The notes: generated by a model not told the origin, from the letters alone. A stretch of 64,000 bases of DNA from Bacteroidia bacterium (GCA_019695265.1 JAIBAJ010000001.1:34347-98346), one strand, 5' to 3'. Counted from the stretch's first letter, positions 8,967 through 63,641 are shown. A program made the numbers and translations.

Positions 8967-10121
8967 TTGGCCAGCCTTTTACAAAATATTCCCACTTTAA
9001 GTTACTGGGAAAGTCAAAATTTGCTCTTTAATCCGGACATTTTGGTGATTGGAGCAGGAATAGTCGGATTAAATGCCGCCTATCATGCCAGGTTAAGATT
9101 TCCAAAGGCAAAGATTCTGGTTTTAGAACGTGGGCTTTTACCTATGGGTGCTAGTACCAAAAATGCAGGATTTGCTTGTTTTGGAAGTGCCGGAGAACTT
9201 TTAGACGACCTTGAAAACCAGTCGGAAACCGAGGTATTTGAATTGGTAAAAAACAGGTATGAAGGACTACTTTTACTTCGAGAAACTTTGGGGGATCAAG
9301 CCATGGAATTTAGTCCTTGTGGCGGATATGAACTTTTTTTACCCGAAGAAGCTGAGCATTTTCGAAATTGCTATTCCAAATTAGAATACCTAAATAATCA
9401 ATTAGCTGGCATTCATGGTCAAGAAAACACCTATTCTGAACCCAGCTATAAAATTGATCAATTTGGATTCAAGCAAGTACAATCCATCCTCTTTAACCGT
9501 TTAGAAGGCTCTATTCATACAGGTAAAACCATGGTGGCCTTATGGAAAAAATGTATTGAATCCAACATTATGGTATTGAATGGATTTGAATGCTTAGAAC
9601 TCATTTCATCCAAGTCAGGATATGAAATAAAACTCCAACAAGGATTAAGCATTCATGCTGAACAGGTTGTGGTAGCAACAAATGCCTTTGGCAAACAATT
9701 AATTCCGGAATTAGAAATTCAACCCGGAAGAGCCCAGGTATTAATAACTTCACCAATTGAAAATTTGCCTTTTTCAGGCACCTTCCATTTTGACCGGGGC
9801 TATTATTATTTCCGAAATGTAGGAAACCGGGTGTTGTTTGGAGGAGGAAGGAATTTGGACTTTGAAGGAGAACAAAGCTATGACTTTCAGCTAAGCGCTA
9901 TTATTCAAAACCAATTAGAAGAATATTTGCACCAAGTTATCCTTCCCGGAAAAAACTTCGAAATCGAACAGCGATGGAGTGGAATAATGGGATTAGGTCC
10001 GAACAAAGGCACCATTTTGAAAAAGCTAGAAACGGGTTTAGTGGTTGCCGTTCGAATGGGAGGAATGGGTGTTGCCCTGGGAAGCCTGGTTGGTAAAAAA
10101 GCTTCTGAACTTTTGAATTAG
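8967..10121 (+). CDS. FAD-dependent oxidoreductase (DAO/glycine-oxidase-like family)
   Basis: Rossmann dinucleotide motif ILVIGAGIVGLNAAYH near the N-terminus, 384 aa. The ORF-track start is a TTG at 8967; the true start is uncertain. Confidence 0.65.
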   Translation: MASLLQNIPTLSYWESQNLLFNPDILVIGAGIVGLNAAYHARLRFPKAKILVLERGLLPMGASTKNAGFACFGSAGELLDDLENQSETEVFELVKNRYEGLLLLRETLGDQAMEFSPCGGYELFLPEEAEHFRNCYSKLEYLNNQLAGIHGQENTYSEPSYKIDQFGFKQVQSILFNRLEGSIHTGKTMVALWKKCIESNIMVLNGFECLELISSKSGYEIKLQQGLSIHAEQVVVATNAFGKQLIPELEIQPGRAQVLITSPIENLPFSGTFHFDRGYYYFRNVGNRVLFGGGRNLDFEGEQSYDFQLSAIIQNQLEEYLHQVILPGKNFEIEQRWSGIMGLGPNKGTILKKLETGLVVAVRMGGMGVALGSLVGKKASELLN

Positions 10122-12502
10122 TTTTCCTTCTTGATGTGTAATTTCTCCAAATCCACATCTTCTTCTTCATCGTAATACTGTAACCATGGATCTTCAAAGG
10201 TTTTCCGGGTATTGGCTTTGTCGATACTTAATAACATGGACGGAAGAATAAACAAATTGGAAAACATGGCCACAACCAAAGTGAAAGAAGTTAGAATACC
10301 CAAGGCCTTGGTTCCCCCAAAAGTGGAAAAACTAAAAATCCCAAAACCGCAAAACAAAACAACGGAGGTATAAATAATACCAATACTTGCTTCCTTCAAG
10401 GCTGCATTTACGGCCTTTTTAATATTCCAGTCGTGGTTTTTCAATTCTTGTCTGTATTTAGCTAAAAAGTGAATAGTATTATCAACTGCAATACCAAAAG
10501 CAATACTAAAAACCAAAATGGTAGAAGGTTTTATAGCGATATCCGCCATTCCCATAATTGCTGCGGTTAATACAAGCGGAATCAAATTGGGGACCAGGCA
10601 TACAAATACCATTTGAAAATTCGAGAACATTCCTGCCATCAGCAATGCAGTTAATACCAAGGCCCAAAACAAGCTTGAGTATAAATCATCAATTAAATAG
10701 TCAGTTCCTTTTAAAAAAACAATACTGGTACCTGTCATTGTAACCTCGTACTTTTTAGGATCAAAAATGCTATCGATTTTCGGCCTTAATTCCTTCTTTA
10801 TCCTATGCAATTCCAATGTTCCGATATCCTTCATATGAGCACTCACTCTTGTAACCTGCCTATTGCTATCGATAAAGCTTTTCAGCATGTTTTGCTTTTG
10901 TTTTCCAACCTGAACATATTGCAAAATAAACACTTGCTCCTGGCTTGAAGGCAAACTATACATCGTACTATCTCCATAGTAAAAGCCTTGTTTTGAAAAC
11001 TTCAATACTTCATTAATGGACAAAGGCCGGGCAAACTCTTTATACTTAGCTAACTCCTCTTGCAACTTCTCCAGTTTTCTAAAAACGGAGGCATTCATAA
11101 CTCCCCTTTTACGTTTGGTATCCACACTAATTTCAAAGGGCATCACTCCGTGATAATTCTCTTCAAAATAGTGCAAATCGGTTAATACCCGGTGATCTTG
11201 CGGTAAATCATCCACGATATTGCCCGTGGTTTTTATTTTTGAAATATAGTAACCACCTAGTCCAACCAAGATAAAAGAAGCAATGTAAATGAGGTTGCGA
11301 TGAAAATGGATGATATAACTGATCCATTCTACCAGGGTATTGGTGTATTTGCTTTCCAAATGATCGGTATCCTTGCTGGATGGAGCAGGCAAATAGCTTA
11401 GCACAATGGGCATCAACGTTATACTATGCACATATAAAATCATAATTGCAATCGTACTTATCACCCCAAATTCCATAATTACCTGACTTTCAGTAAAGGC
11501 AAATGTTACAAAGCCGGCTGCAGTGGTTGCATTGGTCAAAAAAGTTGAATTCCCTACTTTGTGAATAACTCGCATAAGGGCTTTAACCTTGTTACCATGT
11601 GATTTAAATTCAAAATGATACTTATTGAGAATGAAAACACAGTTTGGAACACCTAATACAATCAATAGCGTAGGAACAATAGCAGTGAGAACCGAAATTT
11701 TATATCCGAATAAAACATTAAGTCCCATGCACCAAATTACCCCAATGCCTACAGTAAGCATGGAATAAAAAACCACACTGAACGATCGGAAGAAGAAATA
11801 CATAATTAAGGCCAATGCCAAAGCAGCCAAAATCATGAAAACCCTTAATTCGCGCTGAACCAATACCGAAAGCACTGTTCGAATGTATGGCAAACCCGAA
11901 TAGTGTACTTCCATGCCTGAAGTTTGACCATAGCTATCTCCAATTTCTTGAACACGTTCTATAAAATCATTTCTTCCTTTACTATCCAATAATTTCCTAT
12001 TCATGGTTACCGCCATCATGTAACTATGAGTTTCAGGATTGTACAGAATATCGCGGTAAAATGGTAAAGACAAAACAAGGTTCTTAACCGAATCCAATTC
12101 CACCTGACTATCCGGACGTTTAGTAAAGATAGGCTTAAACTCAAACTTCTTCAATGAGTCGTTTCGAACCAGGTTATAAACACTGGCAACGCTCACCACC
12201 CCTTCCACACCATTCAAATTCTTTAATTCCTGGCTTAAATCATACCATTTCTGAAAATGATCCAATCGGAACATGTTGGAATCGGAAATACCAATAACAA
12301 ATACATTTCCATCTTCACCAAAGGTTTTCTTAAACCGTTCATATTCTATGTAAGTAGTATCGTCGGTTGGGAGCAATTTGGCAAAATCATACCGAATTTC
12401 ATTTTTTGAGGCAAGCCAACCAAACCAAACCGTGATGGCCATGGTTACCACCAAAATAACTAATCGTTTTCGCAATAGAAACCTTCCTATAACCTGCCAC
12501 AT
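10118..12502 (-). CDS. MMPL/RND-superfamily membrane transporter (HAE3-like exporter)
   Basis: 794 aa with two 5-6 TM bundles separated by periplasmic loops. Matches the SSD/MMPL family profile (GIGVDYSIH-like regions). Confidence 0.65.
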   Translation of the reverse strand: MWQVIGRFLLRKRLVILVVTMAITVWFGWLASKNEIRYDFAKLLPTDDTTYIEYERFKKTFGEDGNVFVIGISDSNMFRLDHFQKWYDLSQELKNLNGVEGVVSVASVYNLVRNDSLKKFEFKPIFTKRPDSQVELDSVKNLVLSLPFYRDILYNPETHSYMMAVTMNRKLLDSKGRNDFIERVQEIGDSYGQTSGMEVHYSGLPYIRTVLSVLVQRELRVFMILAALALALIMYFFFRSFSVVFYSMLTVGIGVIWCMGLNVLFGYKISVLTAIVPTLLIVLGVPNCVFILNKYHFEFKSHGNKVKALMRVIHKVGNSTFLTNATTAAGFVTFAFTESQVIMEFGVISTIAIMILYVHSITLMPIVLSYLPAPSSKDTDHLESKYTNTLVEWISYIIHFHRNLIYIASFILVGLGGYYISKIKTTGNIVDDLPQDHRVLTDLHYFEENYHGVMPFEISVDTKRKRGVMNASVFRKLEKLQEELAKYKEFARPLSINEVLKFSKQGFYYGDSTMYSLPSSQEQVFILQYVQVGKQKQNMLKSFIDSNRQVTRVSAHMKDIGTLELHRIKKELRPKIDSIFDPKKYEVTMTGTSIVFLKGTDYLIDDLYSSLFWALVLTALLMAGMFSNFQMVFVCLVPNLIPLVLTAAIMGMADIAIKPSTILVFSIAFGIAVDNTIHFLAKYRQELKNHDWNIKKAVNAALKEASIGIIYTSVVLFCGFGIFSFSTFGGTKALGILTSFTLVVAMFSNLFILPSMLLSIDKANTRKTFEDPWLQYYDEEEDVDLEKLHIKKEN

Positions 12503-12671
12503 GGTATCATAAATGGAGCGCGAAGGTAGTGGAATATATGTTCTAACCAGCTAACTTGGTTCCTATTCACCTTGGATTAACAAAACAGGCAGAAAGTTTA
12601 ATATACCTTTCACCTAATTTATACTTCCTTAACAGTCAATCCACTATACATTTTCATGCCGGTAAACAGAC

Positions 12672-13187
12672 TTATCCTTCCTTAGGATTAGCAGGACCAT
12701 CCAGGAGAAGCTGATAAAAAACCAAATCCAACCATTTCCCAAATTTGTATCCCACCTGTTTGAAATGTGCCACCGGTTCAAAACCAAACTTCCGATGTAA
12801 GGCTATGCTAACCAGATTTTCGGCATCAATTCCGGCCACTAAGGTATGTACTTCGTTTTTTTGAGCCTCCTGAATAAGTTTGGAATACAATTCAATCCCT
12901 ATTCCTTTTCCTTGATGAAGAGGATGCACATAAACCGAACTCTCCATAGTATATTGGTAGGCTGCCCAAGCTCTGAATGGGCCATACGAAGCAAAACCTA
13001 CTACCCTACCTTGTTCCAAAGCCACCAATACCGGATGCCCCAATCTACATTTCTCTTCCCACCATTGCCTTCGCATTTCCAGGCTATGTGCCTGATAGTT
13101 ATATACCGCAGTTGTATTTAAAATGGCATGGTTGTAAATCTCTAAAATACCTTCTAAATCCTGCCCTTGTGCAAATTGTATCTCCAT
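12672..13187 (-). CDS. GNAT family N-acetyltransferase (phosphinothricin-acetyltransferase-like)
   Basis: 171 aa. ILEIYNHAI..TAVY..Q and GKGIGIELYSKLIQEA fit the PAT/GNAT fold. Confidence 0.7.
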   Translation of the reverse strand: MEIQFAQGQDLEGILEIYNHAILNTTAVYNYQAHSLEMRRQWWEEKCRLGHPVLVALEQGRVVGFASYGPFRAWAAYQYTMESSVYVHPLHQGKGIGIELYSKLIQEAQKNEVHTLVAGIDAENLVSIALHRKFGFEPVAHFKQVGYKFGKWLDLVFYQLLLDGPANPKEG

Positions 13188-13487
13188 GACTTTTAATGCC
13201 CAAAACTAAACATATTTCTATGGAAATAGTATTCCTTACAACCTGAGTTTTAGCAACTTTTCCTTTTCCCAAAAACCCCAAAAAATTAATGTGTGTTAAA
13301 CTACCAATGTTATTTGAGAAATAGGCAAAAAACATTTGTTAAATAGCAATGGCAAATGCCGATGCAAATTTTTATAATAAACCTTCCTATTTTTGGAACA
13401 AGTGCTCATTTTATGGTGCTAAGGTTTCATAAAAATCCTGGCACCTCATGCATTTGGGTTTAAGAATGCCTTTACTTTGCTAACGAA

Positions 13488-15017
13488 ATGTCTACCCTCA
13501 AAAAACTATTTTCCGATACAGCTATTTATGGTGTTAGCAGCATTGTAGGGCGGATGTTGAGTTACCTGCTTACCCCGCTTTACACCTACAACCTGATACC
13601 TAAGGAATATGGGGTAGTAACCGAAATGTATGCCTACTCTTCATTTCTGAGCATTTTATTAACCTATGGCATGGAAACGGCCTTTTTCCGGTTTTACGCA
13701 GGTGAAGACAATAAGAAATCTGTTTTTGCTACGGCCATGTTTAGCTTGCTTTCCAGTTCCCTGGTTTTTCTGGTTCTGGCTTGGTTGTTCCGATGGCCAT
13801 TGGCTCATTTTCTGAATGGTTCCGGAGGAAGTGAAATGGCCGAAAACTATGCCGTTTACCTGGTTTGGTTTGCCTTGATTGTGGTAATCGACGCCATTAC
13901 CTCCATTCCGTTTGCCCGCCTCCGTGCAACCAACCGTCCGGTACGATTTGCATTAATTAAGTCCCTCAACATTCTCAGCTATGTATTCTTTAACCTCTTT
14001 TTCATCTTAGGTATTCCTTACCTGAAACAACAAGGCAGTCTTCCCTGGCTTACCTCCAACCTAGGTCAATATAAGCTGGTTAATTATATCTTCATATCCA
14101 ACTTGATTTCCAGTGGATTAACCCTTCTTTTACTCCTTCCAGAGCTTGGATTTTCCATTCGTGACATCGAAAAAAAAATGTGGAATCGGATGATACGCTA
14201 CGCACTTCCCATTCTCATAATGGGTTTGGCAGGAATGGTCAATGAAACCTTTGATCGAGTGCTACTCAAATACCTGCTACCCTTGCCCTACGATGAAAAA
14301 ATGCACCAAGTGGGTGTTTACGGCGCTTGTTACAAACTCTCCATTATCATGAGTATTTGCGTTCAAGCCTTCCGGTATGCAGCCGAGCCTTTCTTTTTTA
14401 ACCGACACAAAGAAGGAGGAGGACGAAAAATTTACGCCCAGGTAATGACCTATTTTGTATTTGGCTGTAGCCTGGTTTTCCTGGGAACCATGTTGTATAT
14501 GGATGCTATTCAATATTTTATTGGTCGAAATGGAAGTCAGTTTCTCGAAGGACTTCCCATTGTGCCCTACCTCCTCCTAGCCAACCTCTGTTTAGGTATT
14601 TATTACAATTTAGGTATTTGGTTTAAACTCACCGATAAAACCTTGTTTGGTTCCTATATTTCCATTTTTGGAGCCATCCTTACCTTGGTTCTAAACTTTA
14701 TCCTCATTCCTTGGCTGGGTTACATGGGCGCGGCATACACCACTTTAATCTGCTATTTCAGCATGATGGTTGTTTCCTATTTTTGGGGACAGAAGTACTT
14801 TCCAATCGAATACGATTTGGGCAAATTCTTAATCATTCCAGGTTTTGCACTTGGTCTATACGCCCTAAGCATTAGTTTGCAGCCGGTTTCCATGGTATTG
14901 CAAATGTCACTCAACACCGCTTACCTACTACTTTTCCTTGGGGTTTCTTACCTAATAATTTCTAAGGATTGGTTTAAATTTGTACCCAACTTCACTTCCA
15001 ACACTACCATTTCATGA
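13488..15017 (+). CDS. Polysaccharide biosynthesis protein / oligosaccharide flippase (MOP/Wzx-like)
   Basis: 509 aa with about 12-14 TM helices and a Wzx-like topology. The 3' end overlaps the dut start. Confidence 0.65.
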
Positions 15018-15863: not shown

Positions 15864-17249
15864 TTAGTAGCCCAAATCGCCTCGTACATAAATAAGTTCC
15901 ATCACCCCTTTGATGAACTTGGCCCGGTACTCGGCCAGCTTTAATTCCGCATCCATCCAGCGGGTTTCGCGGGTGTTGAGCAAAAACAGACTGCTTTCGC
16001 CGGAGTCAAACTTCATTTTCTCGGCCGACAAAAGTTGCTTACTGAGGCGGGCATTTTGCTCTGCATTGGACAATTGCTGACTAAGGATGTTCAGGTTTTT
16101 TTGAATTACCTCCAACTTCAGGTCCAATTCATTCCGTTTGGTGGTTAAATCGAGGGCATTGTTTTGGAGATTCAACTTCGCAATTTTATAATCGTTTCGG
16201 GCCGAACGAAGCAGCAAAGGCATAGCAAACTGCACCCCCCACTTGTAATTGGAGGTATTAAAGAGGGCGTTGGAAGAAGGCGAATTACCAAGAAAATTGT
16301 ACTTCACGTCCAACTTGGGTTTAATCATTTCGGCTCTAAACTTTTTTTCCACCTCCAGAACTTGTTGATAGGCCTGGTACTTAGAAATTTCGGGATTCAC
16401 TTGAGGTCCGGCGGCCAACAATTGCAAATATTTGGTTTTCATCCAATTATAAGTTTGTTCCAAACTATCTTCCACGGCCAAAGTGCCACGCATGGAGAAT
16501 TCCTGATTGGGGGCCAACCAATTTTGAGCAAGCAGAAAATTCTCCACTTTATTCAAATCCATTTTTACGCTTTGCACTTGCAGGAGGCGGCTTTGCAGGA
16601 GAATAAAGGCTTCGACCGAATCGATTGCGGCATTTTCGCCAATTTCGGCCAAGGATTTTATGCCTTGAAAGCGTTTATCGGCCAGGTCGAGAAAGTAAGT
16701 AGAAAGACTAAGTTCCTTAAGAGTAAAAATCCAATCGAAATATGCTACAGAAGCCTGGTAGAGAAGTTCGTTCTGCAAACGGTTTTTCTCGGCATCGTAG
16801 TACTTTTCATAGCCTTTAGCTTTCAGCAATTCGGCTCGGCGCTTGTCAATGAACATTCCTTGTCCGAGGGCGGTTTCCACTCCAATAAATGGCAATCCGG
16901 CAGCGGGAGTTTTCTCTTCAGGATTGAGGTAAACCCCTTGTGAAAAGCCATAACCTGCTGAAAGGTATTGAGAAGCGAACAAAGGTTGTTTAACCTGGAG
17001 ATTAAGGACTGAATAGTAGTTTTTACCATCGAAGGTTTTGTTATCGAAATCGCCCGACAAGAATGGATCGAACCCGCCTTGGGCTGAGCGTTTAGCCAAA
17101 CGGCCCATTTCTCCAACATTATTGGCTTTTTGAAACAAAGGGTGATTGGACTTAACCCTTTCCAGGAATGCTTGAAAGCCGAGGTTTTCCTGAGCTTTTG
17201 TTTGAAGTGCCAGGAAGGAAAGCAGGAACAGAAGGAGTTTATTTTTCAT
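15864..17249 (-). CDS. TolC-family outer membrane efflux protein
   Basis: Signal peptide MKNKLLLFLLSFLALQTKAQE, about 460 aa of helical/barrel repeats typical of OEP/TolC. The start overlaps the upstream HlyD gene stop by 11 bp, which indicates an operon. Confidence 0.75.
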   Translation of the reverse strand: MKNKLLLFLLSFLALQTKAQENLGFQAFLERVKSNHPLFQKANNVGEMGRLAKRSAQGGFDPFLSGDFDNKTFDGKNYYSVLNLQVKQPLFASQYLSAGYGFSQGVYLNPEEKTPAAGLPFIGVETALGQGMFIDKRRAELLKAKGYEKYYDAEKNRLQNELLYQASVAYFDWIFTLKELSLSTYFLDLADKRFQGIKSLAEIGENAAIDSVEAFILLQSRLLQVQSVKMDLNKVENFLLAQNWLAPNQEFSMRGTLAVEDSLEQTYNWMKTKYLQLLAAGPQVNPEISKYQAYQQVLEVEKKFRAEMIKPKLDVKYNFLGNSPSSNALFNTSNYKWGVQFAMPLLLRSARNDYKIAKLNLQNNALDLTTKRNELDLKLEVIQKNLNILSQQLSNAEQNARLSKQLLSAEKMKFDSGESSLFLLNTRETRWMDAELKLAEYRAKFIKGVMELIYVRGDLGY

Positions 17250-19584
17250 TTTTACCCTCCTTCGAATCCAGGCTTTTGGTTTGTGGTTTATAGAATTCGG
17301 GCGGGAAACCATTGATTTTTCGCCAAATTTCGTACACTACCGGAACTTCTTTCAGTATTAATATTCCTTTTACCCCACTACCAACCTGAATAGAAACCGG
17401 CCAAGATTCACTATCCTTTTTAGCCAGCACTCGAAACTTACCATTGGGAGAAATTACCTTATCTACCGACACCACGGTAGCCTGGTAGGTACCAAAACTG
17501 ATACCGGGCCAACCGCTAAACACAAAGGCCGGCCAGCCATCGAACGTAAGCTGCATGGATTGTCCTTTTTCCACTAATGGAAGATCCATGGGTTCAATAT
17601 AAACCTCTACGGAATAATTACCCAGGTTAGGAACAAAGCTTACCAAGGCTTCACCTTCTTTGGTTAAATCACCAACACCTTGTTTAAAGGTACGGGTAAT
17701 AAATCCATCCTGGGGGCAAAGCACATAGTAATAAGAATTTCGAATGCTATAGTTTGACAATTGGTTTTGCATTTTTGTTAATCCCGCTTCGGCATCATAG
17801 AGCGTTGATAAAGTGGAGAACTTTTCAGATTCGGCCTTCATCAGCTTTTCGTTGTATTCCTGTTTAATGGCATTCAGTTCAATGTAAGCATTGGTAAGGT
17901 CATTTTTAGAAATCATAAATTTGTTTTCAGCCTCAATTACTTTGGCATGGCTATCTTGCAATTTAGCTTTACGGTTTTCAAAATCAGTTTTTGAAATTAC
18001 CCCTTTGCTCAGGAGGGATTCAAAACGTTGAAATTGTTCCGAAGTAATGGTGTAATTATTGGCGATGGAAGCATAGTTTGCACTATCGGATTTTACTTTA
18101 CCCTGCATTTGGGTTACTTTGTTTTTAACCTGCTGCATTTTAAGCGGATAAGCCTTGTTGATGGCATCTATTTGCGCATCGATGGAATTAATTTTACTTT
18201 CATAGGAATGGATGGAAGATTCTTTTGAATTGACCTGAGCCTGGGTTCTTTCCACCAATTTAGGATCCATATAATCCTCTTTAATTTCTGAAATCAAGGC
18301 AATGGTATCTCCTTTTTTAAGGAAATCACCTTCCTTAATAAACCAACGTTCGATACGACCCGAAATACGGGAGGTAATGTTTTGGGGGCGATCGGTAGGA
18401 TTCAAGGTGGTAACTGCACCTTCCGACTGAATGGTTTGGTTCCAAGGCAGAAAGAGGGTTATGATGGAAATTCCACCGATTGTATAAAGTATGGTTTTAA
18501 TTTTCTTTGAATAGGTGTGGTTATAAATTCTATCGAGAAAACGTTTGTAAAGTCCATCGTACTTCAGGTGGGTTTGATAATCTTCCTGTTGATCTAATTC
18601 CAGCACTTGGTATAGCTTTTCCGTAGCGGTTAGAACATCATAAATGGTACGAAGCTCCACAACAATTTTCTCGACACCATTAATAATGAGAACCACCAAA
18701 ATTTCAGAAGCCACAAATTGGCCGATATTAAGCAAACCCCATTGAACGAAAAGCACACCAACCAGAAGAATGAGTGAAGTAAACAATACCTTAAATAGGA
18801 GAATGCTTTTGAACTGCAATTCCAGAATTTGAAAATTTTTGGTTTTGGTTTCCAGGTAATGGCTCAATTTTTCTTCGGTTTCATGAAAAATAAAGGGAGC
18901 ATCCATGGTTTTATCCTGGTTCTTTAAACCAATAAAAACATTTTGCAACCAATCAACAAACTGGTATTTTCGTTTTGATTCATTCAAGCTAGCCTCCATA
19001 GAACGTTGTCCATAGTATCGAAGCAAAAAATAATACAACACCGAAACTACAAGGGTAAAAGACAAAAAAAGAGGGCTGTATGCCGATAGAATCAGTAAAC
19101 AAAAGGCGATACTTATAGCGGCAAATGAAATATCAATGAGAATTTTAGTAAGTCCTTTTTGAAGGGTTAATACATCGAAAAACTGGTTTATTTTACTTGG
19201 GATGTATTCATTGAGGTAAAGATCCGATTTAAGGTGGGCTACTTTTTCGGCAAATTTTACTCCAAAAAACACCAAAATACTTTGCTGAATGGTCTCATTT
19301 ATTCTCATTTGCCAAAGCTGGAATGCAGAAACAAAAACCAGACAAAGAATAGTGAGTGTGCAGAGTAAGAACAAGGACGACGATAACTTACCGGTCATGG
19401 TATAGGTTACAACGGCTTGAATTCCGAGAGGAACCGCTACATAAAAAAGGCTTTGCAGGGCCGAAAGGAGATAAATTCGACGAATATTTGCCCGAAGGGG
19501 TTGGAGCAATTGCAGGAGTCTGTTTAATTCAATCATGGTTTGCAAAAGTACACACGGATTTGAAAATGATAGTATTGCTATCAT
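17239..19584 (-). CDS. Fusion protein: N-terminal ABC-exporter transmembrane domain (no ATPase domain) + C-terminal HlyD-family membrane fusion protein
   Basis: The first ~330 aa are a 6-TM ABC_membrane-like domain ending in the canonical TMD-NBD linker ATEKLYQVLELDQQED. It runs directly into an HlyD N-terminal TM helix (ILYTIGGISIITLFL), the biotinyl/lipoyl-like hairpin motif (IKEGDFLKKGDTIALISE) and a long coiled coil. No Walker A/B or ABC signature motif is present. Confidence 0.6.
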   Translation of the reverse strand: MIAILSFSNPCVLLQTMIELNRLLQLLQPLRANIRRIYLLSALQSLFYVAVPLGIQAVVTYTMTGKLSSSLFLLCTLTILCLVFVSAFQLWQMRINETIQQSILVFFGVKFAEKVAHLKSDLYLNEYIPSKINQFFDVLTLQKGLTKILIDISFAAISIAFCLLILSAYSPLFLSFTLVVSVLYYFLLRYYGQRSMEASLNESKRKYQFVDWLQNVFIGLKNQDKTMDAPFIFHETEEKLSHYLETKTKNFQILELQFKSILLFKVLFTSLILLVGVLFVQWGLLNIGQFVASEILVVLIINGVEKIVVELRTIYDVLTATEKLYQVLELDQQEDYQTHLKYDGLYKRFLDRIYNHTYSKKIKTILYTIGGISIITLFLPWNQTIQSEGAVTTLNPTDRPQNITSRISGRIERWFIKEGDFLKKGDTIALISEIKEDYMDPKLVERTQAQVNSKESSIHSYESKINSIDAQIDAINKAYPLKMQQVKNKVTQMQGKVKSDSANYASIANNYTITSEQFQRFESLLSKGVISKTDFENRKAKLQDSHAKVIEAENKFMISKNDLTNAYIELNAIKQEYNEKLMKAESEKFSTLSTLYDAEAGLTKMQNQLSNYSIRNSYYYVLCPQDGFITRTFKQGVGDLTKEGEALVSFVPNLGNYSVEVYIEPMDLPLVEKGQSMQLTFDGWPAFVFSGWPGISFGTYQATVVSVDKVISPNGKFRVLAKKDSESWPVSIQVGSGVKGILILKEVPVVYEIWRKINGFPPEFYKPQTKSLDSKEGKNEK

Positions 19585-19617
19585 AAATAAATGTTAATAT
19601 ATCATCTTTTATATATT
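19567..19617. promoter_or_regulatory. Candidate TetR operator palindromes in the tetR / efflux-operon divergent intergenic region
   Basis: TGATAG-TATTG-CTATCA (19567-19583) overlaps the efflux gene start codon. AATATAT-N8-ATATATT lies at 19596-19617. Confidence 0.35.
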
Positions 19618-20329: not shown

Positions 20330-20373
20330 GTAAGTTTGAGGCAATAACTAGCCTTTTCTTGGGTTTGCCAACC

Positions 20374-21717
20374 ATGAAATTATCACTTCAACCTTTTATT
20401 ATATGCCTGGCCATTCAACTGTTGGCATGCATAACACCGAAAGCACAGACAATATCGGCAGAAGGGTTGAAATCTGATTTTCAGCATTTGAGACAACAAT
20501 TAGAGAAAACCCATCCCGGATTGTATTTGTACACCTCCAGGGAAAGATTGGATTTTGTTTTTGACAGCTTGATGAATTCCTTCAATCAGTCACTCACCGA
20601 TCAGCAGTTTTATTCCACTATTTGTGTTTTGCAGCAAGAAATAAAGGATGGTCACACCCTTTTTCTACCCGAAATAAAAGAAAGCAATGTATACCTTCCC
20701 TTTCATTTTGCATTTCAAAACAATCAACTTTATATCACCAGGAACGACAATAAGGCAATTACTATATCAACACCTGCTTTGGTCAAATCCATTAACGGAG
20801 TTCCCACCCAACAAATAATCCAGGAAATGCGAAAAAGATTAAGCAGAGATGGAAACAGTTTTGCTTATGCCGATTGGGTTATTCATACCTACTTTCGAAT
20901 GTATTATCAGTTCTTTTTTGGTTCTCAACCCCAGTTTGAAGTAGAACTTGAAACCAACAAGGTTCCATCCAAAATCCTTTGCCAGGGATTGAGCATGCAA
21001 CAAATCAGCACCATTCGGCAATGCGGACCGGAAAAACAACAAGAGAAAGGAATTGAAATGAACTTTTGGCCTAAGAAAGGGTATGCCTATTTAAAAATTA
21101 AGGATTTCCATTCCTCCAATTATCGCTCCACCTACCACCAACATTTTAAGAAAGAAGTCAAACAATTTTTCGATTCCGTCCGACTTCAAAGATTGGACAA
21201 TGTGATTTTGGATTTACGCGACAACCAAGGTGGAGATATAAAAAACGGGGTTGAATTACTCTCCTATCTGATGACCACACCCTTTGAAATGGTTTGTAGT
21301 TACCGGAAAAAGAACTGGGGAAAGACTATTGGCCCACAGATGGGATATCACCAACCCAAAAAAAACGCCTTTCGAGGACAAGTAATAGTTTTGATTAATG
21401 GCGGAAGCTTTTCCAATTCAGTAATTGTTTCAAAAGCTATGAAAAGAGCCAACCGCGCCACTTTTATTGGGTCCGAAAGCGGAGGAAATCCATACGTATT
21501 TTCAGGATTTGCAAAAACCATTGTTTTACCTCATTCCAAAATTCAGGTTGAAATCCCAACCACGGTATTGGTATTGGACCAAAAATCCATGGATCAAACC
21601 TCCTTTACAAACGACCTTTTGGACTATCCTTGCCTTCAGGATGTGCAAACGCCAGTTTCGGATTTAGATCCTTGCATGGAAAAAGCCATTCAATTGGCAA
21701 AAGAAAAAACCAAGTAG
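20374..21717 (+). CDS. Secreted S41-family (tail-specific/C-terminal processing) peptidase-like protein
   Basis: Signal peptide, LDLRDNQGGD motif and INGGSFSNS...SKAMK resemble the S41 core, although the usual catalytic Ser motif is diverged. Confidence 0.5.
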   Translation: MKLSLQPFIICLAIQLLACITPKAQTISAEGLKSDFQHLRQQLEKTHPGLYLYTSRERLDFVFDSLMNSFNQSLTDQQFYSTICVLQQEIKDGHTLFLPEIKESNVYLPFHFAFQNNQLYITRNDNKAITISTPALVKSINGVPTQQIIQEMRKRLSRDGNSFAYADWVIHTYFRMYYQFFFGSQPQFEVELETNKVPSKILCQGLSMQQISTIRQCGPEKQQEKGIEMNFWPKKGYAYLKIKDFHSSNYRSTYHQHFKKEVKQFFDSVRLQRLDNVILDLRDNQGGDIKNGVELLSYLMTTPFEMVCSYRKKNWGKTIGPQMGYHQPKKNAFRGQVIVLINGGSFSNSVIVSKAMKRANRATFIGSESGGNPYVFSGFAKTIVLPHSKIQVEIPTTVLVLDQKSMDQTSFTNDLLDYPCLQDVQTPVSDLDPCMEKAIQLAKEKTK

Positions 21718-21795: not shown

Positions 21796-22944
21796 ATGGA
21801 ACCTGAATTTGATGTGGTAGTTGTGGGAGGCGGTCCGGCAGGATGTGCAACAGTTTTGGGTCTTCATGGGAAAGGCTTCAAAGTGGCCTTGGTTGACAAG
21901 TTCAGCTTCCCTCGTGACAAGGTTTGTGGCGACGCCATTCCCGGTCCAAGTTTCCAAGCCTTGGATTTAATCAACCCGGATTGGGGCAAAAAAGTAAGAG
22001 AATTAAGCAATAGCACAGCAGTTCAATCATCCAGTGCCGTTTTTCCATTTCAAACCACCTTCAGGTATGAATGGAAGTTGTTTGCCTACAATTGCAAACG
22101 ATTGGTCTTTGACGACTTTATTTTTCAGTTAGTTAAGAAGGAAACCCAAACCCAAATATTTGAAAACACCTCCATAAGTTCCATTGTTGAGGAAGAAAAT
22201 CATTTGGTTTTAACCGATAAAAATGGAAATCGAATTACCACTCGATGTGTGGTAGGAAGTGATGGGGCAAAATCGGTTGTTAAGCGCTGTTTACAAAAGG
22301 AGTTGAACGAAAAAGCCGGGGTATTTGCAGCAGTCAGAGCTTATTATACCGGGATTACAGGTTGCAAGGAAGGTGAAAATGAATTTCATTATATACCCGG
22401 TGTGGATGGGTATTTTTGGATATTTCCATTACCGCAAGGTTGGTATAATGTAGGCTTTGGATTATTAAATAAGAAAGGAAAATCAGCAGAAAGTCCAATC
22501 AATGTGAGGAAAAAACTGGAAGAAATTATTCAATTACCTACATTTAAAGAACGATTTGCAAAGGCGGAAATTCAAGGAGCAGTAAACGGACATGGTTTGC
22601 CCTTATGGACTAAGAAACAATCCATTTCAGGCAATCGCTTTCTGTTGACCGGTGATGCTGCCAATTTAATTGACCCCCTTCAAGGACATGGCATTGACAA
22701 AGCGATTTGGAGTGGATATTTTGCTTCCAAACATATTCAAAAGTGCATGGAATTGAATAGATTTGATAGTGCATTTATGCAGAATTATGACCATAAAATC
22801 AACCAAACTCTGGGTAAGGAACTCAGACGCAATTACTTTTTTTATTGGATTTTAATTCATTTCCCGGTTCTGTTCAAACTAATTTCATGGCTCAAACCAC
22901 CACAATGGGTAGTGAATTGGTTCATTAGGTTTTTCAAAATTTAA
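21796..22944 (+). CDS. FAD-dependent oxidoreductase, geranylgeranyl-reductase family
   Basis: FDVVVVGGGPAGCATVLGL (GxGxxG), CGDAIP and the C-terminal GDAANLIDPLQGHGIDKA motif are typical of the GG-reductase/FixC family. Confidence 0.7.
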   Translation: MEPEFDVVVVGGGPAGCATVLGLHGKGFKVALVDKFSFPRDKVCGDAIPGPSFQALDLINPDWGKKVRELSNSTAVQSSSAVFPFQTTFRYEWKLFAYNCKRLVFDDFIFQLVKKETQTQIFENTSISSIVEEENHLVLTDKNGNRITTRCVVGSDGAKSVVKRCLQKELNEKAGVFAAVRAYYTGITGCKEGENEFHYIPGVDGYFWIFPLPQGWYNVGFGLLNKKGKSAESPINVRKKLEEIIQLPTFKERFAKAEIQGAVNGHGLPLWTKKQSISGNRFLLTGDAANLIDPLQGHGIDKAIWSGYFASKHIQKCMELNRFDSAFMQNYDHKINQTLGKELRRNYFFYWILIHFPVLFKLISWLKPPQWVVNWFIRFFKI

Positions 22945-59084: not shown

Positions 59085-59186
59085 AAAACTTGAACTGAAA
59101 TTTTACTCCTGCTTTGTACAAATCCTTTCACGAAAGCGAAACCAAACTATTCCCTGTTTCCTTCATTATTTCTATCTTTGCCCCTA

Positions 59187-62100
59187 ATGGAAACTACCGT
59201 TTACCAACCCCAACATAAAATCCGTATTGTTACTGCGGCATCTTTGTTTGATGGCCACGATGCAGCAATTAACATTATGCGCAGAATTATCCAAAGTAGT
59301 GGAGCTGAAGTGATACACCTGGGCCACGATCGTTCGGTGAAAGAAATTGTTGATTGCGCTATTCAGGAAGATGTGCAGGCGATTGCTATTACCAGTTATC
59401 AAGGCGGACACGTTGAATTTTTCAAATACATGTACGACCTCTTGCAAGAACGAGGTGCCGGACAAATTAAAATCTTTGGAGGTGGTGGTGGCACCATACT
59501 TCCAACCGAAATTGAAGAACTGCATCGTTACGGAATTACCCGAATTTACTCACCCGACGACGGACGTTCGCTAGGCTTGCAGGGAATGATTAACGATTTG
59601 CTTAAAACCTGCGATTTCCCAACCGGTTTTAACCTAAACGGGGAAGTAAAACACCTGGCAGAAAAGGATATTAAATCCATCGCTAAACTTATTTCAGCAG
59701 CCGAAAACAACCACAATGAATTTGACCAAGTTTTCAAAGCCGGAACCGATAAAAAAGTTGCCGTATTAGGAATTACTGGTACCGGTGGAGCCGGAAAATC
59801 TTCATTGGTAGATGAATTGGTAAGACGTTATTTGCTCGATTTCAAGGATAAAACCATTGCCATTATTTCGGTGGATCCCTCGAAACGAAAAACAGGTGGA
59901 GCACTACTGGGAGACCGAATCCGGATGAATGCCATTAACAACGACCGGGTTTATATGCGTTCCCTGGCAACCCGTCAAAGTAATCTGGCCCTTTCAAAAT
60001 ATGTAAAAGATGCCGTTGAAATTGTGAAGGCCGCCGGTTTTGACTTGGTGGTACTTGAAACATCAGGAATTGGTCAAAGTGATACTGAAATTCTAGAACA
60101 TAGCGACGTGTCATTGTACGTTATGACTCCCGAATATGGTGCTGCTACCCAACTTGAAAAGATTGATATGTTGGACTTTGCCGATGTAATTGCTTTAAAC
60201 AAATTCGACAAACGCGGCGCCCTGGATGCCCTGCGCGACGTGAAAAAGCAATATAAACGTAACCACCAGCTCTGGGAAACCCCCGACGACGATTTGCCGG
60301 TTTTTGGAACCATTGCTTCCCAATTTAACGACCCGGGAATGAATCGTTTGTATGTGGCTATTATGCAAACCATTGCGAAAAAAACCGGTCTTAATTTCCC
60401 TTCCAACTTCCACATCACCAACGAGATGTCGGAAAAAGTGTATATCATCCCCCCCAGCAGAACCCGTTACCTCAGCGAAATTTCAGAAACAAATCGAAAC
60501 TACGACCAATGGGTAAAGGATCAAGTAGAAATTCAACACCAGCTTGAAGGTTTGGAAACCGCCCAAAAATTAGTACATTCTGCTGAAGCCAAACTAGCCC
60601 TCGATCAAGCTTTTGAAGCACTTTCCCGACAATTCGACCCCCAAAATAAACACCTCATTGACGAACTGCCTAAAAAGATTGAAAACTACCGCAATGAATT
60701 TTTTGTCTTTAAGGTTAGAGACAAAGAATTAAAGGTAAAAACCCATTCAGAAAGTTTATCTCACCTTCAAATACCAAAGGTTGCTACACCAAAATTCCGC
60801 TCCAAAGCCGATCAATTGAATTGGGTTTTGCAAGAGAATTTCCCTGGCGAATTTCCTTATACTGCCGGGGTTTTCCCCTTTAAACGTGAAGGAGAAGACC
60901 CTACCCGAATGTTTGCCGGTGAAGGTGGACCAGAACGAACCAATAAACGTTTCCATTATGTTTCCAAAGGTCTTCCTGCCAAACGACTTTCAACGGCTTT
61001 TGATTCGGTTACTTTGTATGGGCAAGATCCGGACTACCGCCCGGACATCTACGGAAAAATAGGCAATTCCGGGGTTTCCATTTGCTGCCTCGATGATGCA
61101 AAAAAACTTTACTCCGGCTTCAACCTGGCCGACCCCCGAACCTCTGTTTCCATGACCATCAATGGTCCGGCTGCCATTCTTACTGCCTATTTTATGAATG
61201 CTGCCATTGACCAACAATGCGAAATTTATATCAGGCAAAATGGATTAGAGCAAGAAGTTGAAGCTACCATACAAGCCATTTACCAAGGCAAACCCAGACC
61301 AAAATACCAAGGCGAAATTCCGGATGGCAATGATGGACTAGGTTTGATGTTACTAGGTGTTACCGGCGACCAGGTTTTACCAAAAGAAGTTTATGAAAAA
61401 ATAAAAATCGATACCCTGGCCGCTGTTCGGGGCACCGTTCAAGCTGACATTCTAAAAGAAGATCAGGCACAAAATACCTGCATTTTCAGTACTGAATTTT
61501 CGCTTCGGGTAATGGGTGACGTACAGGATTATTTTATCCGAAACAACGTTAGAAACTTCTATTCCGTTAGTATTTCAGGTTACCACATTGCCGAAGCCGG
61601 AGCCAACCCTATTTCCCAATTGGCCTTTACCTTGGCCAATGGATTTACCTACGTTGAATACTACCTCAGCCGAGGTATGGATGTAAACAAATTCGCTCCC
61701 AACCTTTCCTTCTTTTTCAGCAATGGAATCGATCCTGAATACTCCGTTATCGGAAGGGTAGCACGCCGTATTTGGGCAAAAGCTATGAAATTGAAATACA
61801 AGGCAAACGAGCGCAGCCAAATGTTGAAATACCACATCCAAACCAGCGGCCGCAGTCTGCATGCTCAAGAAATCGATTTTAACGACATCCGAACCACCTT
61901 GCAAGCCTTGTATGCCATTTACGACAACTGTAACTCCTTGCATACCAATGCCTACGATGAAGCCATTACCACCCCTACCGAAGCTTCCGTTCGTCGCGCC
62001 ATGGCCATTCAGTTGATTATAAACCGGGAATTGGGATTGGCAAAAAATGAAAATCCGTTGCAGGGTTCCTTTATTATTGAAGAGTTAACCGATCTAGTAG

Positions 62101-62528
62101 AAGAGGCAGTGTTAGCCGAATTCGATCGGATTACCGAACGCGGTGGTGTACTCGGCGCTATGGAAACCATGTACCAGCGCGGCAAAATTCAGGAGGAATC
62201 CTTGTACTATGAAACCCTGAAACATACAGGAGAATTTCCCATCATCGGAGTAAACACGTTTTTATCTTCTCAAGGTTCGCCAACCATCATTCCAAACGAG
62301 GTTATCCGTGCCACCGAAGAGGAGAAAAAATACCAAATTTCAATGCTGGAAAATCTTCACCAAATGCAGGCTATTCAAGCAAAACAAGGATTGGAAAGTT
62401 TGCAAAAAACAGCCGTTCAAAACCAAAATATTTTCGAAAACCTCATGGAAACCGCTAAATATTGTTCCCTTGGACAAATTACACAGAGCCTATTTCAGGT
62501 TGGTGGACAATACCGTCGAAATATGTAA
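59187..62528 (+). CDS. icmF: Fused isobutyryl-CoA mutase (B12-binding domain + MeaB-like GTPase + acyl-CoA mutase catalytic domain)
   Basis: The N-terminus has the B12 DxHxxG motif ([12 protein letters not shown]), the middle has the MeaB P-loop [17 protein letters not shown], and the C-terminal ~550 aa are a methylmalonyl-CoA-mutase-like TIM barrel. The ~1100-aa length matches IcmF. Start taken at ATG 59187. Confidence 0.85.
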
Positions 62529-62729: not shown

Positions 62730-63641
62730 ATGTCGATTCTAACACAGAACATTACCAAAGTTTATGGAACCCAAAAAGCCTTAAACAATGTCAGTTTTGA
62801 AGTTCCTGCAGGACAAATTGTTGGTTTCCTAGGCCCCAATGGTGCCGGAAAATCAACTATGATGAAAATCCTGACCTGCTACATCCCACAAACAGAAGGC
62901 AAGGCAGAAGTATGCGGATTTGATGTTGCCGAAAATCCGCTCGAAGTCAAAAAACAGGTCGGATACCTTCCCGAACACAATCCGCTATACCTGGAAATGT
63001 ATGTAAAGGAATACCTGGCTTTTTGCGCTTCTATTCATGGCTTGGGTAAACAGTCCGACAAACTTGCCAAGGAAATGATTGAAAAAACCGGCCTTGGTCC
63101 TGAACAACATAAAATAATTGGCACACTATCCAAGGGTTATCGCCAACGGGTTGGCTTGGCTCAAGCTATGATTCACAACCCCAAAGTTCTTATACTCGAC
63201 GAACCCACCTCCGGCTTAGACCCCAATCAGTTGGTTGATATACGTAATCTCATCCTTCAATTAGGGAAAGAAAAAACCGTTTTACTTTCAACCCATATTA
63301 TGCAAGAGGTTGAAGCTGTTTGCGACCGGGTAATTATCATCAACAAGGGTAGCATTGTTGCCGACAAACCTATTGGTGAAATTCAACATCAAGGAGGGAA
63401 AACAATCGTTTCAGTTGAGTTCGACAAGCCGGTTGCCGATCATGTATTAAAAGGAATAAGTGGTGTAATTCAAGTTAAAAACATAGGTAAAAACACGTGG
63501 ATTCTAGAGGGCAAATCCAACCTGGATCTTCGTCCCGCCATTTTCCAATTTGCAGTTGAAAAAGGACTCGCAGTTTTAACCATGCAAAAGGAAGAACAAA
63601 GTTTAGAAGAAACCTTCCAAAAACTTACTAAAGGTTCCTAA
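62730..63641 (+). CDS. gldA: ABC transporter ATP-binding protein, GldA-like (gliding-motility-associated ABC ATPase)
   Basis: Walker A GPNGAGKST, signature LSKGYRQRVGLA, Walker B ILILDEPTSGLD. The N-terminus MSILTQNITKVYGTQKALNNVSFEV closely resembles flavobacterial GldA. Confidence 0.6.
   Translation: MSILTQNITKVYGTQKALNNVSFEVPAGQIVGFLGPNGAGKSTMMKILTCYIPQTEGKAEVCGFDVAENPLEVKKQVGYLPEHNPLYLEMYVKEYLAFCASIHGLGKQSDKLAKEMIEKTGLGPEQHKIIGTLSKGYRQRVGLAQAMIHNPKVLILDEPTSGLDPNQLVDIRNLILQLGKEKTVLLSTHIMQEVEAVCDRVIIINKGSIVADKPIGEIQHQGGKTIVSVEFDKPVADHVLKGISGVIQVKNIGKNTWILEGKSNLDLRPAIFQFAVEKGLAVLTMQKEEQSLEETFQKLTKGS

Follow-up and report, generated by a model that had tools for sequence, protein, structure and literature searches.

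Predicted fusion of an ATPase-less ABC-exporter membrane domain to a HlyD-type adaptor in a TolC-type module of Bacteroidota

[quoted passage not shown] The SLiPTs, to which it belongs, are type IV ABC-fold transmembrane domains (TMDs) driven by protons through conserved glutamates, and are proposed to have descended from full-length ABC transporters by loss of the nucleotide-binding domains (NBDs) and coupling helices (PMC13316013). The HlyB-HlyD complex comprises three HlyB dimers and six HlyD (PMC11026475); PDB entry 8DCK holds 6 + 6 chains. An RxxxLxxxxxxS motif at the hairpin tip docks the adaptors MacA, AcrA and HlyD onto TolC (PMC3391258). Here we describe a gene in a 64,000-nucleotide (nt) stretch of Bacteroidia bacterium DNA (GCA_019695265.1 JAIBAJ010000001.1:34347-98346; hereafter the window), the predicted product of which is a six-helix type IV ABC-exporter TMD joined directly to a HlyD/EmrA-type adaptor, with no NBD. 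An earlier note on this DNA had described a 781-amino-acid (aa) open reading frame (ORF) in which an ABC-exporter TMD is fused in frame to HlyD where the NBD should begin, and the ORF list, the domain matches and the motifs found in the translation (ATEKLYQVLELDQQED and KEGDFLKKGD) bear this description out. We are highly confident of the architecture, the evolutionary origin and the functional maintenance of this fusion gene taken jointly. Coordinates are collected in Table 1; residues are counted from M17 of the ORF unless 781-aa numbering is stated.

Identification of the membrane half was based on NCBIfam, profile and fold evidence, because its Pfam match was sub-threshold and obtained from the isolated half only. 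Residues ~21-343 of the fusion ORF matched solely the TMD segment of NCBIfam models for bacteriocin and type I secretion system ABC transporters (positions 143-460 of 710 in TIGR03796). Pfam ABC_membrane aligned end to end with the isolated N-terminal half (profile positions 6-268 of 274) at 15 bits, below the 28-bit cut-off, and was not matched at E<0.1 when the full fusion ORF was scanned. A profile built from 118 family sequences matched the TMDs of ComA, PCAT1 and HlyB in the PDB with E-values of 1.4e-6 to 6e-5. A 14-sequence profile (A3) was less sensitive against the PDB than the 118-sequence one, and a single-sequence TMD query was uninformative (best E 0.36).

Fold comparison pointed to the same lineage. 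An AlphaFold (AF2) model of the TMD alone (pLDDT 72.7) consisted of helices 2-48, 51-101, 112-153, 155-205, 213-266 and 271-311, and its best 50 Foldseek matches in the PDB were all type IV ABC exporters, with query-normalised TM-scores of 0.6-0.74 (PCAT1 with E 1.6e-7; ComA and TmrAB both at 0.71). The best 50 matches of the full-length model were adaptor structures only. Both profile and Foldseek searches placed PCAT1, ComA and HlyB, and not Rv1819c or SbmA, as the nearest solved TMD relatives; Pfam SbmA_BacA was not matched, ABC_membrane being the sole family reported at E up to 1.

A motif scan found neither Walker A nor LSGGQ in the fusion ORF or in 120 homologs, and ABC_tran was not matched in the ORF by Pfam or NCBIfam scans. 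This agrees with the earlier note, which had seen no ATPase motif in the ORF and no ATPase gene adjacent to it; the sole ABC ATPase of the window lies 43 kb off. Peptidase_C39 was likewise not matched in the fusion ORF, where the TMD begins at residue ~20, and domain scans of the protein detected no RND or MFS domain.

The second half of the protein is predicted, from sequence and models, to be a member of the HlyD/EmrA adaptor family, every feature tested (anchor, lipoyl domain, hairpin, barrel and RLS motif) being present. It matched Pfam HlyD_3, Biotin_lipoyl_2 and HlyD_D23 as well as TIGR01843 (type_I_hlyD), so that of the profiles proposed in the earlier note the two adaptor families were recovered, ABC_membrane only below threshold and ABC_tran not at all. 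The family profile matched EmrA (4tko, E 1.4e-10) and HlyD (8dck_C) in the PDB, and Foldseek returned EmrA (4tko, E 1e-17), EmrAB-TolC (8zal/8zar) and the HlyD and MacA folds. At the tip of the long modelled hairpin, the three residues of the TolC-docking motif, R504, L508 and S515, were all invariant in 118 sequences. The seventh helix of the protein aligned with the transmembrane (TM) anchor that precedes the conserved LPWTQ motif in stand-alone HlyD genes. The resulting topology is consistent, since TM6 ends in the cytoplasm, where HlyD starts before crossing the membrane once.

The origin of the fusion was apparent from its relatives. A one-genome-per-species scan yielded 557 related loci, 80 of which were fetched for analysis. 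Twenty-eight of these (L004-L031) had a match of ~2.2 kb, shorter where a contig ended, and are of the fused type; together with L001-L003 this made 31 fused-type loci, and an ORF with both halves was present in 29 of them. The other 52 matched the same query residues over ~3.0 kb and are of a split type with two adjoining genes, one for an NBD-containing ABC protein (545-602 aa) and one for a HlyD of ~450 aa, followed by an outer-membrane factor (OMF) and usually headed by a co-directional TetR gene homologous to that of the window. In Flavobacterium aquatile LMG 4008 (L079), for example, TetR (9312-9983, 223 aa), ABC (9986-11650, 554 aa; Pfam ABC_tran 72 bits), HlyD (11656-13002, 448 aa) and OMF (13116-14504, 462 aa) follow one another. 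Both arrangements envisaged in the earlier note, a shared fusion and two genes (ABC and HlyD), thus exist among relatives. A triple TMD-NBD-HlyD fusion in the relatives was considered and rejected, the two being separate genes.

Fused and split proteins were ~35% identical in the TMD and ~50% in the adaptor. They aligned to either side of a ~230-250-residue gap, corresponding to the whole NBD and the first ~10-15 HlyD residues, which supports the clean NBD loss suggested in the earlier note. The largest alignment gap spanned 309 columns after residue 322, with 199-218 aa plus flanks missing, and the fusion junction was placed between nt 18571 and 18570. These alignments indicate that in the window clade a deletion took exactly the NBD and the first ~10-15 hlyD codons, joining both reading frames, and that the fusion descends from a module of four genes, tetR-abc-hlyD-tolC, that occurs across the Bacteroidota.

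In ordinary ABC transporters, no part is more conserved than the NBD. Split-type proteins showed the reverse: pairwise identity was 0.34 for the NBD versus 0.57 for the TMD and 0.60 for the adaptor, and columns at least 90% conserved made up 5% of the NBD versus 29% and 31%, respectively. Inspection of the 52 split-type ABC proteins revealed a Walker A lysine in 44, an SGG signature in none, a Walker B DE in one (most read ED) and an H-loop histidine in two. Compared with the solved NBDs of P-gp and ABCB4, the F. aquatile NBD reads LSSSN for LSGGQ, LFYEDP for LLLDEA and VASR for VAHR. An exhaustive TMD-only search extended this picture. It recovered 1317 cluster representatives with E<=1e-10, of which 321 had E<=1e-30. 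The best 150 representatives comprised one fused protein, numerous 540-580-aa TMD-NBD proteins and a 690-760-aa class extended at the N terminus; in the 143 long enough to judge, SGG was found in 2, DE in 12 and the H-loop histidine in 9. Judged by these residues, the NBD of the parent clade is catalytically degenerate and its least conserved domain. Each module has one ABC gene, and both ATP sites would be degenerate if its product forms a homodimer.

The extension of the 690-760-aa class, seen in P0125, P0135, P0154 and ~35 other representatives, is a region of ~150-190 residues ahead of the TMD and degenerate NBD. It gave no Pfam match; the TMDs of these proteins were 34-38% identical. It is sited like the C39 or C39-like domain of PCATs and HlyB, of which it may be a diverged version.

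Trees of TMD and adaptor columns recovered the main fused clade, including the window, in 100/100 bootstrap replicates and monophyly of all fused proteins in 0/100. Two divergent fused proteins, L027_F and L029_F, grouped with the split-type L078_S in 100/100, and TMD-only and adaptor-only trees agreed. The ABC gene of L078 (9935-11503, in an uncultured Chryseobacterium sp. metagenome-assembled genome) is of the split type and shortened to 522 aa. By eye, the part of its product that follows the TMD still resembles an NBD (..ISGNSIKCKKF.., ..LLEMARAIAAKPDLLILRN..), and it had no Pfam ABC_tran match. An ancestor with an NBD was assumed for polarity because the TMD is homologous to NBD-bearing ABC exporters. 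On these grounds, NBD loss and fusion appear to have arisen independently in two lineages, and the relatives appear to form a graded series from a degenerate NBD through a relic NBD (L078) to no NBD with fusion.

The membrane domain retained in the fused clade is highly conserved. About 60 of its residues are invariant, and the polar or charged Q40, Q273, E278, N286, E289 and K290, inside TM1, TM5 and TM6, are common to NBD-bearing relatives. E278, in the middle of TM6, did not vary among 118 fused proteins, and its conservation in split-type relatives was at least 95%; the aligned position is Asn in ComA and PCAT1, both ATP-driven. E289 and K290 form a conserved pair at the inner end of TM6, at the membrane boundary. 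TM helices and periplasmic loops stay highly conserved in the fused clade, the periplasmic loop ECL1 (extracellular loop 1) scoring 0.90 versus 0.67 in the split type. In type IV exporters, intracellular loop 1 (ICL1) forms an NBD-coupling helix. Of all TMD segments, it was conserved least in the fused clade (0.33 versus 0.57 in the split type), and it contained indels. The cytoplasmic extensions of TM2-TM5 are long and helical in the AF2 models.

Fused proteins are widespread and under selection. A search of 5.8 billion proteins returned more than 1118 matches to the fusion protein, the best 120 of which were 696-781 aa long, 50-94% identical and aligned over 89-100% of the query; they are named 'HlyD family efflux transporter periplasmic adaptor subunit' or 'multidrug resistance efflux pump' in the databases. 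Homolog alignments contained dozens of invariant residues in both halves. The three-gene module (tetR, fusion, OMF) recurred in relatives that were 94%, 83%, 62% and 51% identical; the contigs that carry it reach 1.87 Mb. A fused gene lies on a contig of that length, JAXLTK010000001.1 of GCA_046330105.1. Comparison with the closest of these (L085, 94%) revealed 149 synonymous and 25 nonsynonymous differences in the TMD, and 161 and 34 in the adaptor; raw counts are given because the TMD dS of 3.06 is near saturation, which makes the dN/dS ratio (omega) of this pair an upper-bound style estimate. Synonymous sites were saturated in 274 of 276 fused-type pairs, and in the two other, unsaturated pairs omega was 0.06-0.09 (TMD) and 0.02-0.04 (adaptor). 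Purifying selection acts strongly on both halves.

No conserved partner ATPase is present near the module, within 10 kb. An ORF with an ABC-type NBD was detected within 10 kb on either side in 4 of 29 fused-type loci, differing in size, type and position; the neighbourhoods of four further relatives contained no ABC NBD gene, and the operon of the window no partner NBD. The only ABC ATPase of the window is of the DrrA type, which normally pairs with ABC-2 permeases. Of the two observations that the earlier note had set against its own interpretation, the fusion proved widespread and conserved, and a partner ATPase was found neither in the operon nor as a conserved gene within 10 kb.

We put at about 0.6 the probability that the fusion unites, in one subunit, the inner-membrane and periplasmic parts of a tripartite exporter of the TolC type under TetR control, and at the same figure that this exporter works without any ATPase. 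Transport is probably not ATP-driven because there is no ATPase and the ancestral one was already without catalytic residues. The 'energy-independent adaptor' alternative raised in the earlier note is in this respect closer to the truth than decay, given that the NBDs of the parent clade were already degenerate. The covalent 1:1 fusion fits the HlyBD ratio, so six chains would yield a hexameric adaptor with three TMD dimers beneath a single OMF trimer, the hexamer docking tip to tip with the trimeric OMF. The proton-motive force would act on the ABC-type TMD as in SbmA and the SLiPTs, with E278 as the candidate site of protonation and proton coupling; by this analogy, a specifically proton-driven exporter is a tentative proposal, to which we give somewhat less than even odds. 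TetR control, a typical trait of small-molecule efflux, suggests that the substrate is a small molecule rather than a protein, as do the EmrA-like adaptor and the fact that neither a C39 domain nor a conserved cargo gene is present. Tentatively too, and with slightly more reserve, the locus may show that an ATP-driven type IV ABC exporter was, for a second time and independently, converted into a proton-driven secondary transporter, inside a TolC-type tripartite pump and with living intermediates left.

Several points weigh against this proposal. The AlphaFold models are monomeric and of moderate confidence (pLDDT 73-76), and the oligomeric arrangement is modelled on HlyBD by analogy. The case for protons consists of E278 and the SbmA precedent, and one conserved Glu within the membrane falls well short of the ladder of six glutamates in SbmA. 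The trees are bootstrapped neighbour-joining trees, midpoint-rooted without an outgroup. Furthermore, the Walker A lysine survives in the majority of split-type NBDs. Binding of nucleotide may therefore still be of importance to the parent systems, a role that the fused clade might have come to fill by other means. The ATPase search, finally, covered neighbourhoods only, with whole genomes of fused-type organisms outside its scope, and a distant orphan NBD is possible.

This last point bears on the idea that the fused TMD is still run by ATP, supplied by a separate NBD or an NBD-bearing half-transporter paralog encoded elsewhere in the genome. The unrelated ATPase 43 kb away and the occasional ABC NBD gene within 10 kb (4/29 loci) could be cited in its favour, and the long helical extensions of TM2-TM5 could, in the models, give a docking surface. 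However, no ATPase recurs near the module at the same position or with the same type, the distant one in the window is of the DrrA class, the ICL1 coupling loop is relaxed in the fused clade, with indels, and the NBD was apparently lost twice. Nor would there be any ATP hydrolysis to replace, since the NBDs of the parent clade lack catalytic residues; we regard ATP in trans as improbable. Still further from what we observed are a decaying pseudogene and a deletion made in assembly or sequencing, the readings that the earlier note had considered or against which it had advised inspection of reads. Absence of the NBD is unusual and the exact fusion protein is without a record in the assembly index, but the same junction recurs in more than 100 proteins from independent samples and assemblers, on contigs including one of 1.87 Mb, and read inspection is thereby needless. 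The reading frame is intact throughout, purifying selection acts on both sides of the junction, and the operon order with an overlap-coupled OMF is conserved. Recent frameshift, assembly deletion and pseudogene were all rejected on these comparative data, and decay or artefact is hardly credible.

Somewhat likelier than ATP in trans, though still unlikely, is that the six-helix domain transports nothing and serves the adaptor as a membrane scaffold or oligomerisation module. Adaptor and OMF would then form a passive or gated conduit, or take substrate from the periplasm or from another inner-membrane pump, and adaptors are known to serve more than one transporter. The slightly stronger constraint on the adaptor than on the TMD fits such a role, and the raised conservation of ECL1 in the fused clade fits a structural contact with the adaptor. 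On the other hand, a mere anchor needs no ~60 invariant residues, among them intramembrane polar and charged ones shared with NBD-bearing relatives, and the TMD omega of 0.01-0.09 is typical of functional transporters. Stand-alone HlyD, moreover, is anchored by a single helix, and that helix is still present in the fusion. A transporting TMD in an ATPase-free exporter is for these reasons the reading that we retain.

The neighbouring genes described in the earlier note, a TolC gene overlapping the fusion gene by 11 nt and a divergent TetR gene, were confirmed by Pfam (OEP and TetR_N). The OMF gene starts with MKNKLLLFLLSFLALQTKAQ, and its signal peptide begins MKNKLLLF at 17249. It lies directly downstream of the fusion in 26 of 28 assessable fused-type loci. 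The closest relative (L085) has the same 461-aa OMF gene with the same 11-nt overlap; the two genes also overlap in the 62% and 51% relatives, and the OMF starts 32 nt downstream in the 83% relative (L086). The overlap suggests translational coupling of the OMF to the fusion gene. Of 25 assessable fused-type loci, 18 have a homologous TetR gene in divergent orientation; in 40 of 51 split-type loci such a gene abuts the ABC gene and runs in the same direction. This difference in orientation indicates that tetR was inverted or re-inserted along with the fusion or after it.

Between tetR and the fusion gene, a 44-nt block is identical in the window, L085 and L086, genomes between which synonymous sites of the adjacent coding sequence (CDS) are saturated. 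Such conservation is typical of operators and promoters. The block contains an inverted repeat, AAGATGATA..(28 nt)..TATCATTTT, and is probably an operator, likely for TetR, and promoter shared by tetR and the pump genes. The upstream ATG of the 781-aa ORF (19584) falls in this block. M17 (19536) is the likeliest translation start, codons 1-16 being probably untranslated: fusion homologs of less than 80% identity start at the M17 equivalent, and codons 1-16 evolve nearly neutrally (omega ~0.4-1.6, from few sites, versus 0.01-0.03 in the ORF body) and overlap the conserved block. The 781-aa ORF of the earlier note exists, with a start that is probably wrong. The motif 8 nt upstream of the M17 ATG, TACTTTTG, fits TAnnTTTG, which we take to be the Bacteroidetes -7 promoter consensus, making it a candidate promoter. 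Sigma-70 promoter and terminator scans of the window remained at or below shuffled expectation, and no Rfam family reached its gathering score in the 64 kb.

Table 1. Features of the fusion locus and other genes of the window (window coordinates)
Feature	Coordinates	Strand	Basis
OMF, TolC/OEP family, 461 aa, signal peptide; 11-nt overlap with fusion gene	15864-17249	-	Pfam OEP 76 bits, two stretches
Fusion ORF, 781 aa	17239-19584	-	ORF list
Likely real CDS of fusion gene, 765 aa, start M17	17239-19536	-	Homolog starts, codon evolution, DNA conservation
Predicted periplasmic adaptor, HlyD/EmrA type: lipoyl, alpha-hairpin and beta-barrel domains	17242-18453	-	Pfam, TIGR01843, PDB profile, Foldseek
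Long alpha-helical hairpin, two ~84-residue helices, 427-510 and 516-599	17740-18258	-	AF2, pLDDT 82-93 there
RLS-type TolC-docking motif RxxxLxxxxxxS at hairpin tip, RFESLLSKGVIS, R504/L508/S515	17992-18027	-	Translation
Predicted seventh TM helix, N-terminal membrane anchor of HlyD-type adaptor	18454-18513	-	AF2 helix 342-361
Cytoplasmic linker with deletion scar, linker helix ..EKLYQVLELDQQEDYQT then HlyD tail HLKYDGLYKRF..	18514-18600	-	Fused/split alignment, translation
Predicted type IV ABC-exporter TMD, six long helices, residues 1-312, PCAT/ComA/HlyB lineage	18601-19536	-	NCBIfam, Pfam, PDB profile, AF2, Foldseek
Invariant Glu codon in TM6, E278 (E294 in 781-aa ORF), motif GQFVASE, candidate proton-coupling residue	18703-18705	-	Alignment
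First 16 codons of ORF, MIAILSFSNPCVLLQT, absent from distant homologs	19537-19584	-	Nearly neutral evolution, overlap with conserved block
TACTTTTG, candidate promoter motif	19545-19552	-	Conserved T/A/C/TTTG alignment columns
44-nt intergenic block, putative operator/promoter	19563-19606	.	DNA alignment
Divergent TetR-family regulator, 223 aa	19658-20329	+	Pfam TetR_N
S41 peptidase	20359-21717	+	
FAD-dependent oxidoreductase	21796-22944	+	Geranylgeranyl-reductase/halogenase-like matches
ORF of 1116 aa, B12-binding, MeaB GTPase and methylmalonyl-CoA-mutase domains in one chain	59178-62528	+	
Only ABC ATPase of window, DrrA type, 303 aa, ABC_tran and DrrA1-3 C-terminal domain	62730-63641	+	Pfam; 43 kb from fusion

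An S41 peptidase gene and a gene for an FAD-dependent oxidoreductase follow tetR. The pair is kept in L085 and is not beside the module in more distant relatives; both genes are probably outside the pump module. Elsewhere in the window, the domain combination of the 1116-aa ORF is one that we take to be the architecture of fused isobutyryl-CoA mutase (IcmF). In the one-genome-per-species scan, the closest genome at species level was only 54-59% identical, and the source of the window is a poorly sampled Bacteroidota lineage.

If the proposed working is correct, a different ABC lineage has dispensed with its ATPase under strong selection, and its stepwise relatives would let ATP-free cycling of a TMD be tested. 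Tripartite pumps would then have a fourth energised inner-membrane component beside ABC, RND and MFS, namely an ATPase-less ABC-type TMD. Together with the OMF, the fusion would offer structural studies of tripartite assemblies a simpler system of two proteins. The current annotation as an adaptor only hides the transporter domain, so Bacteroidota efflux inventories may miss both fused and split-type modules. NCBIfam and Pfam scans found no curated family describing the fusion. Searches of the open-access literature, and a comprehensive review of tripartite systems, turned up neither a natural fusion of transporter and adaptor, nor a tripartite pump with an ABC domain that lacks its NBD, nor a Bacteroidota clade with degenerate NBDs; within that scope, such absence is suggestive, not conclusive, of novelty.

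Among the systems compared, the split-type module is the nearest, and no characterisation of it was found in the literature. All four components are homologous to those of the fused module, conserved TMD residues including E278 are common to both, and the OMF is directly downstream in each; the split type keeps ABC and adaptor separate, a degenerate NBD and a co-directional TetR, whereas the fused module has a divergent TetR. TM287/288, TmrAB, BmrCD and MsRv1273c/72c are functional exporters despite substitutions of the catalytic Glu, H-loop His or signature, and several match the fold of the fusion TMD. These heterodimers keep one competent site, whereas the split type, with one ABC gene, would have two degenerate sites as a homodimer and the fusion has none. 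The fusion should not be filed as a functional ABC transporter, because it lacks the NBD that defines one.

SbmA/BacA and the other SLiPTs resemble the fusion in having a type IV ABC TMD fold without an NBD, and its relaxed ICL1 parallels their loss of coupling helices. The two differ in lineage, the fusion being PCAT/HlyB-like and SbmA YddA-like, and the fusion has no SbmA_BacA match and no TM0, its six helices standing directly ahead of the adaptor anchor. The fusion TMD carries one invariant intramembrane Glu (E278), with E289 at the membrane boundary. SbmA is a stand-alone, unfused importer, and the fusion would be part of a tripartite exporter. EmrAB-TolC is a tripartite pump driven without ATP, and EmrA is the best PDB match of the fusion adaptor by both sequence and fold. 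Its inner-membrane part is an unfused 14-TM MFS protein, in contrast to the fused ABC-type TMD described here.

HlyB-HlyD-TolC and the PCAT/ComA exporters are the closest to the fusion TMD in sequence and fold; the fusion adaptor is HlyD-like with an RLS/RLT tip motif, and the order of ABC then adaptor is the same. Unlike these systems, the fusion has no NBD, no C39 or C39-like domain and no recognisable secreted-substrate gene, and is TetR-regulated; ATP hydrolysis by the transporter itself cannot be its source of energy. The 1:1 ratio of transporter to adaptor in HlyBD is the very ratio that the fusion enforces, and this natural fusion independently supports the unexpected HlyB-HlyD stoichiometry of three dimers to six adaptors.

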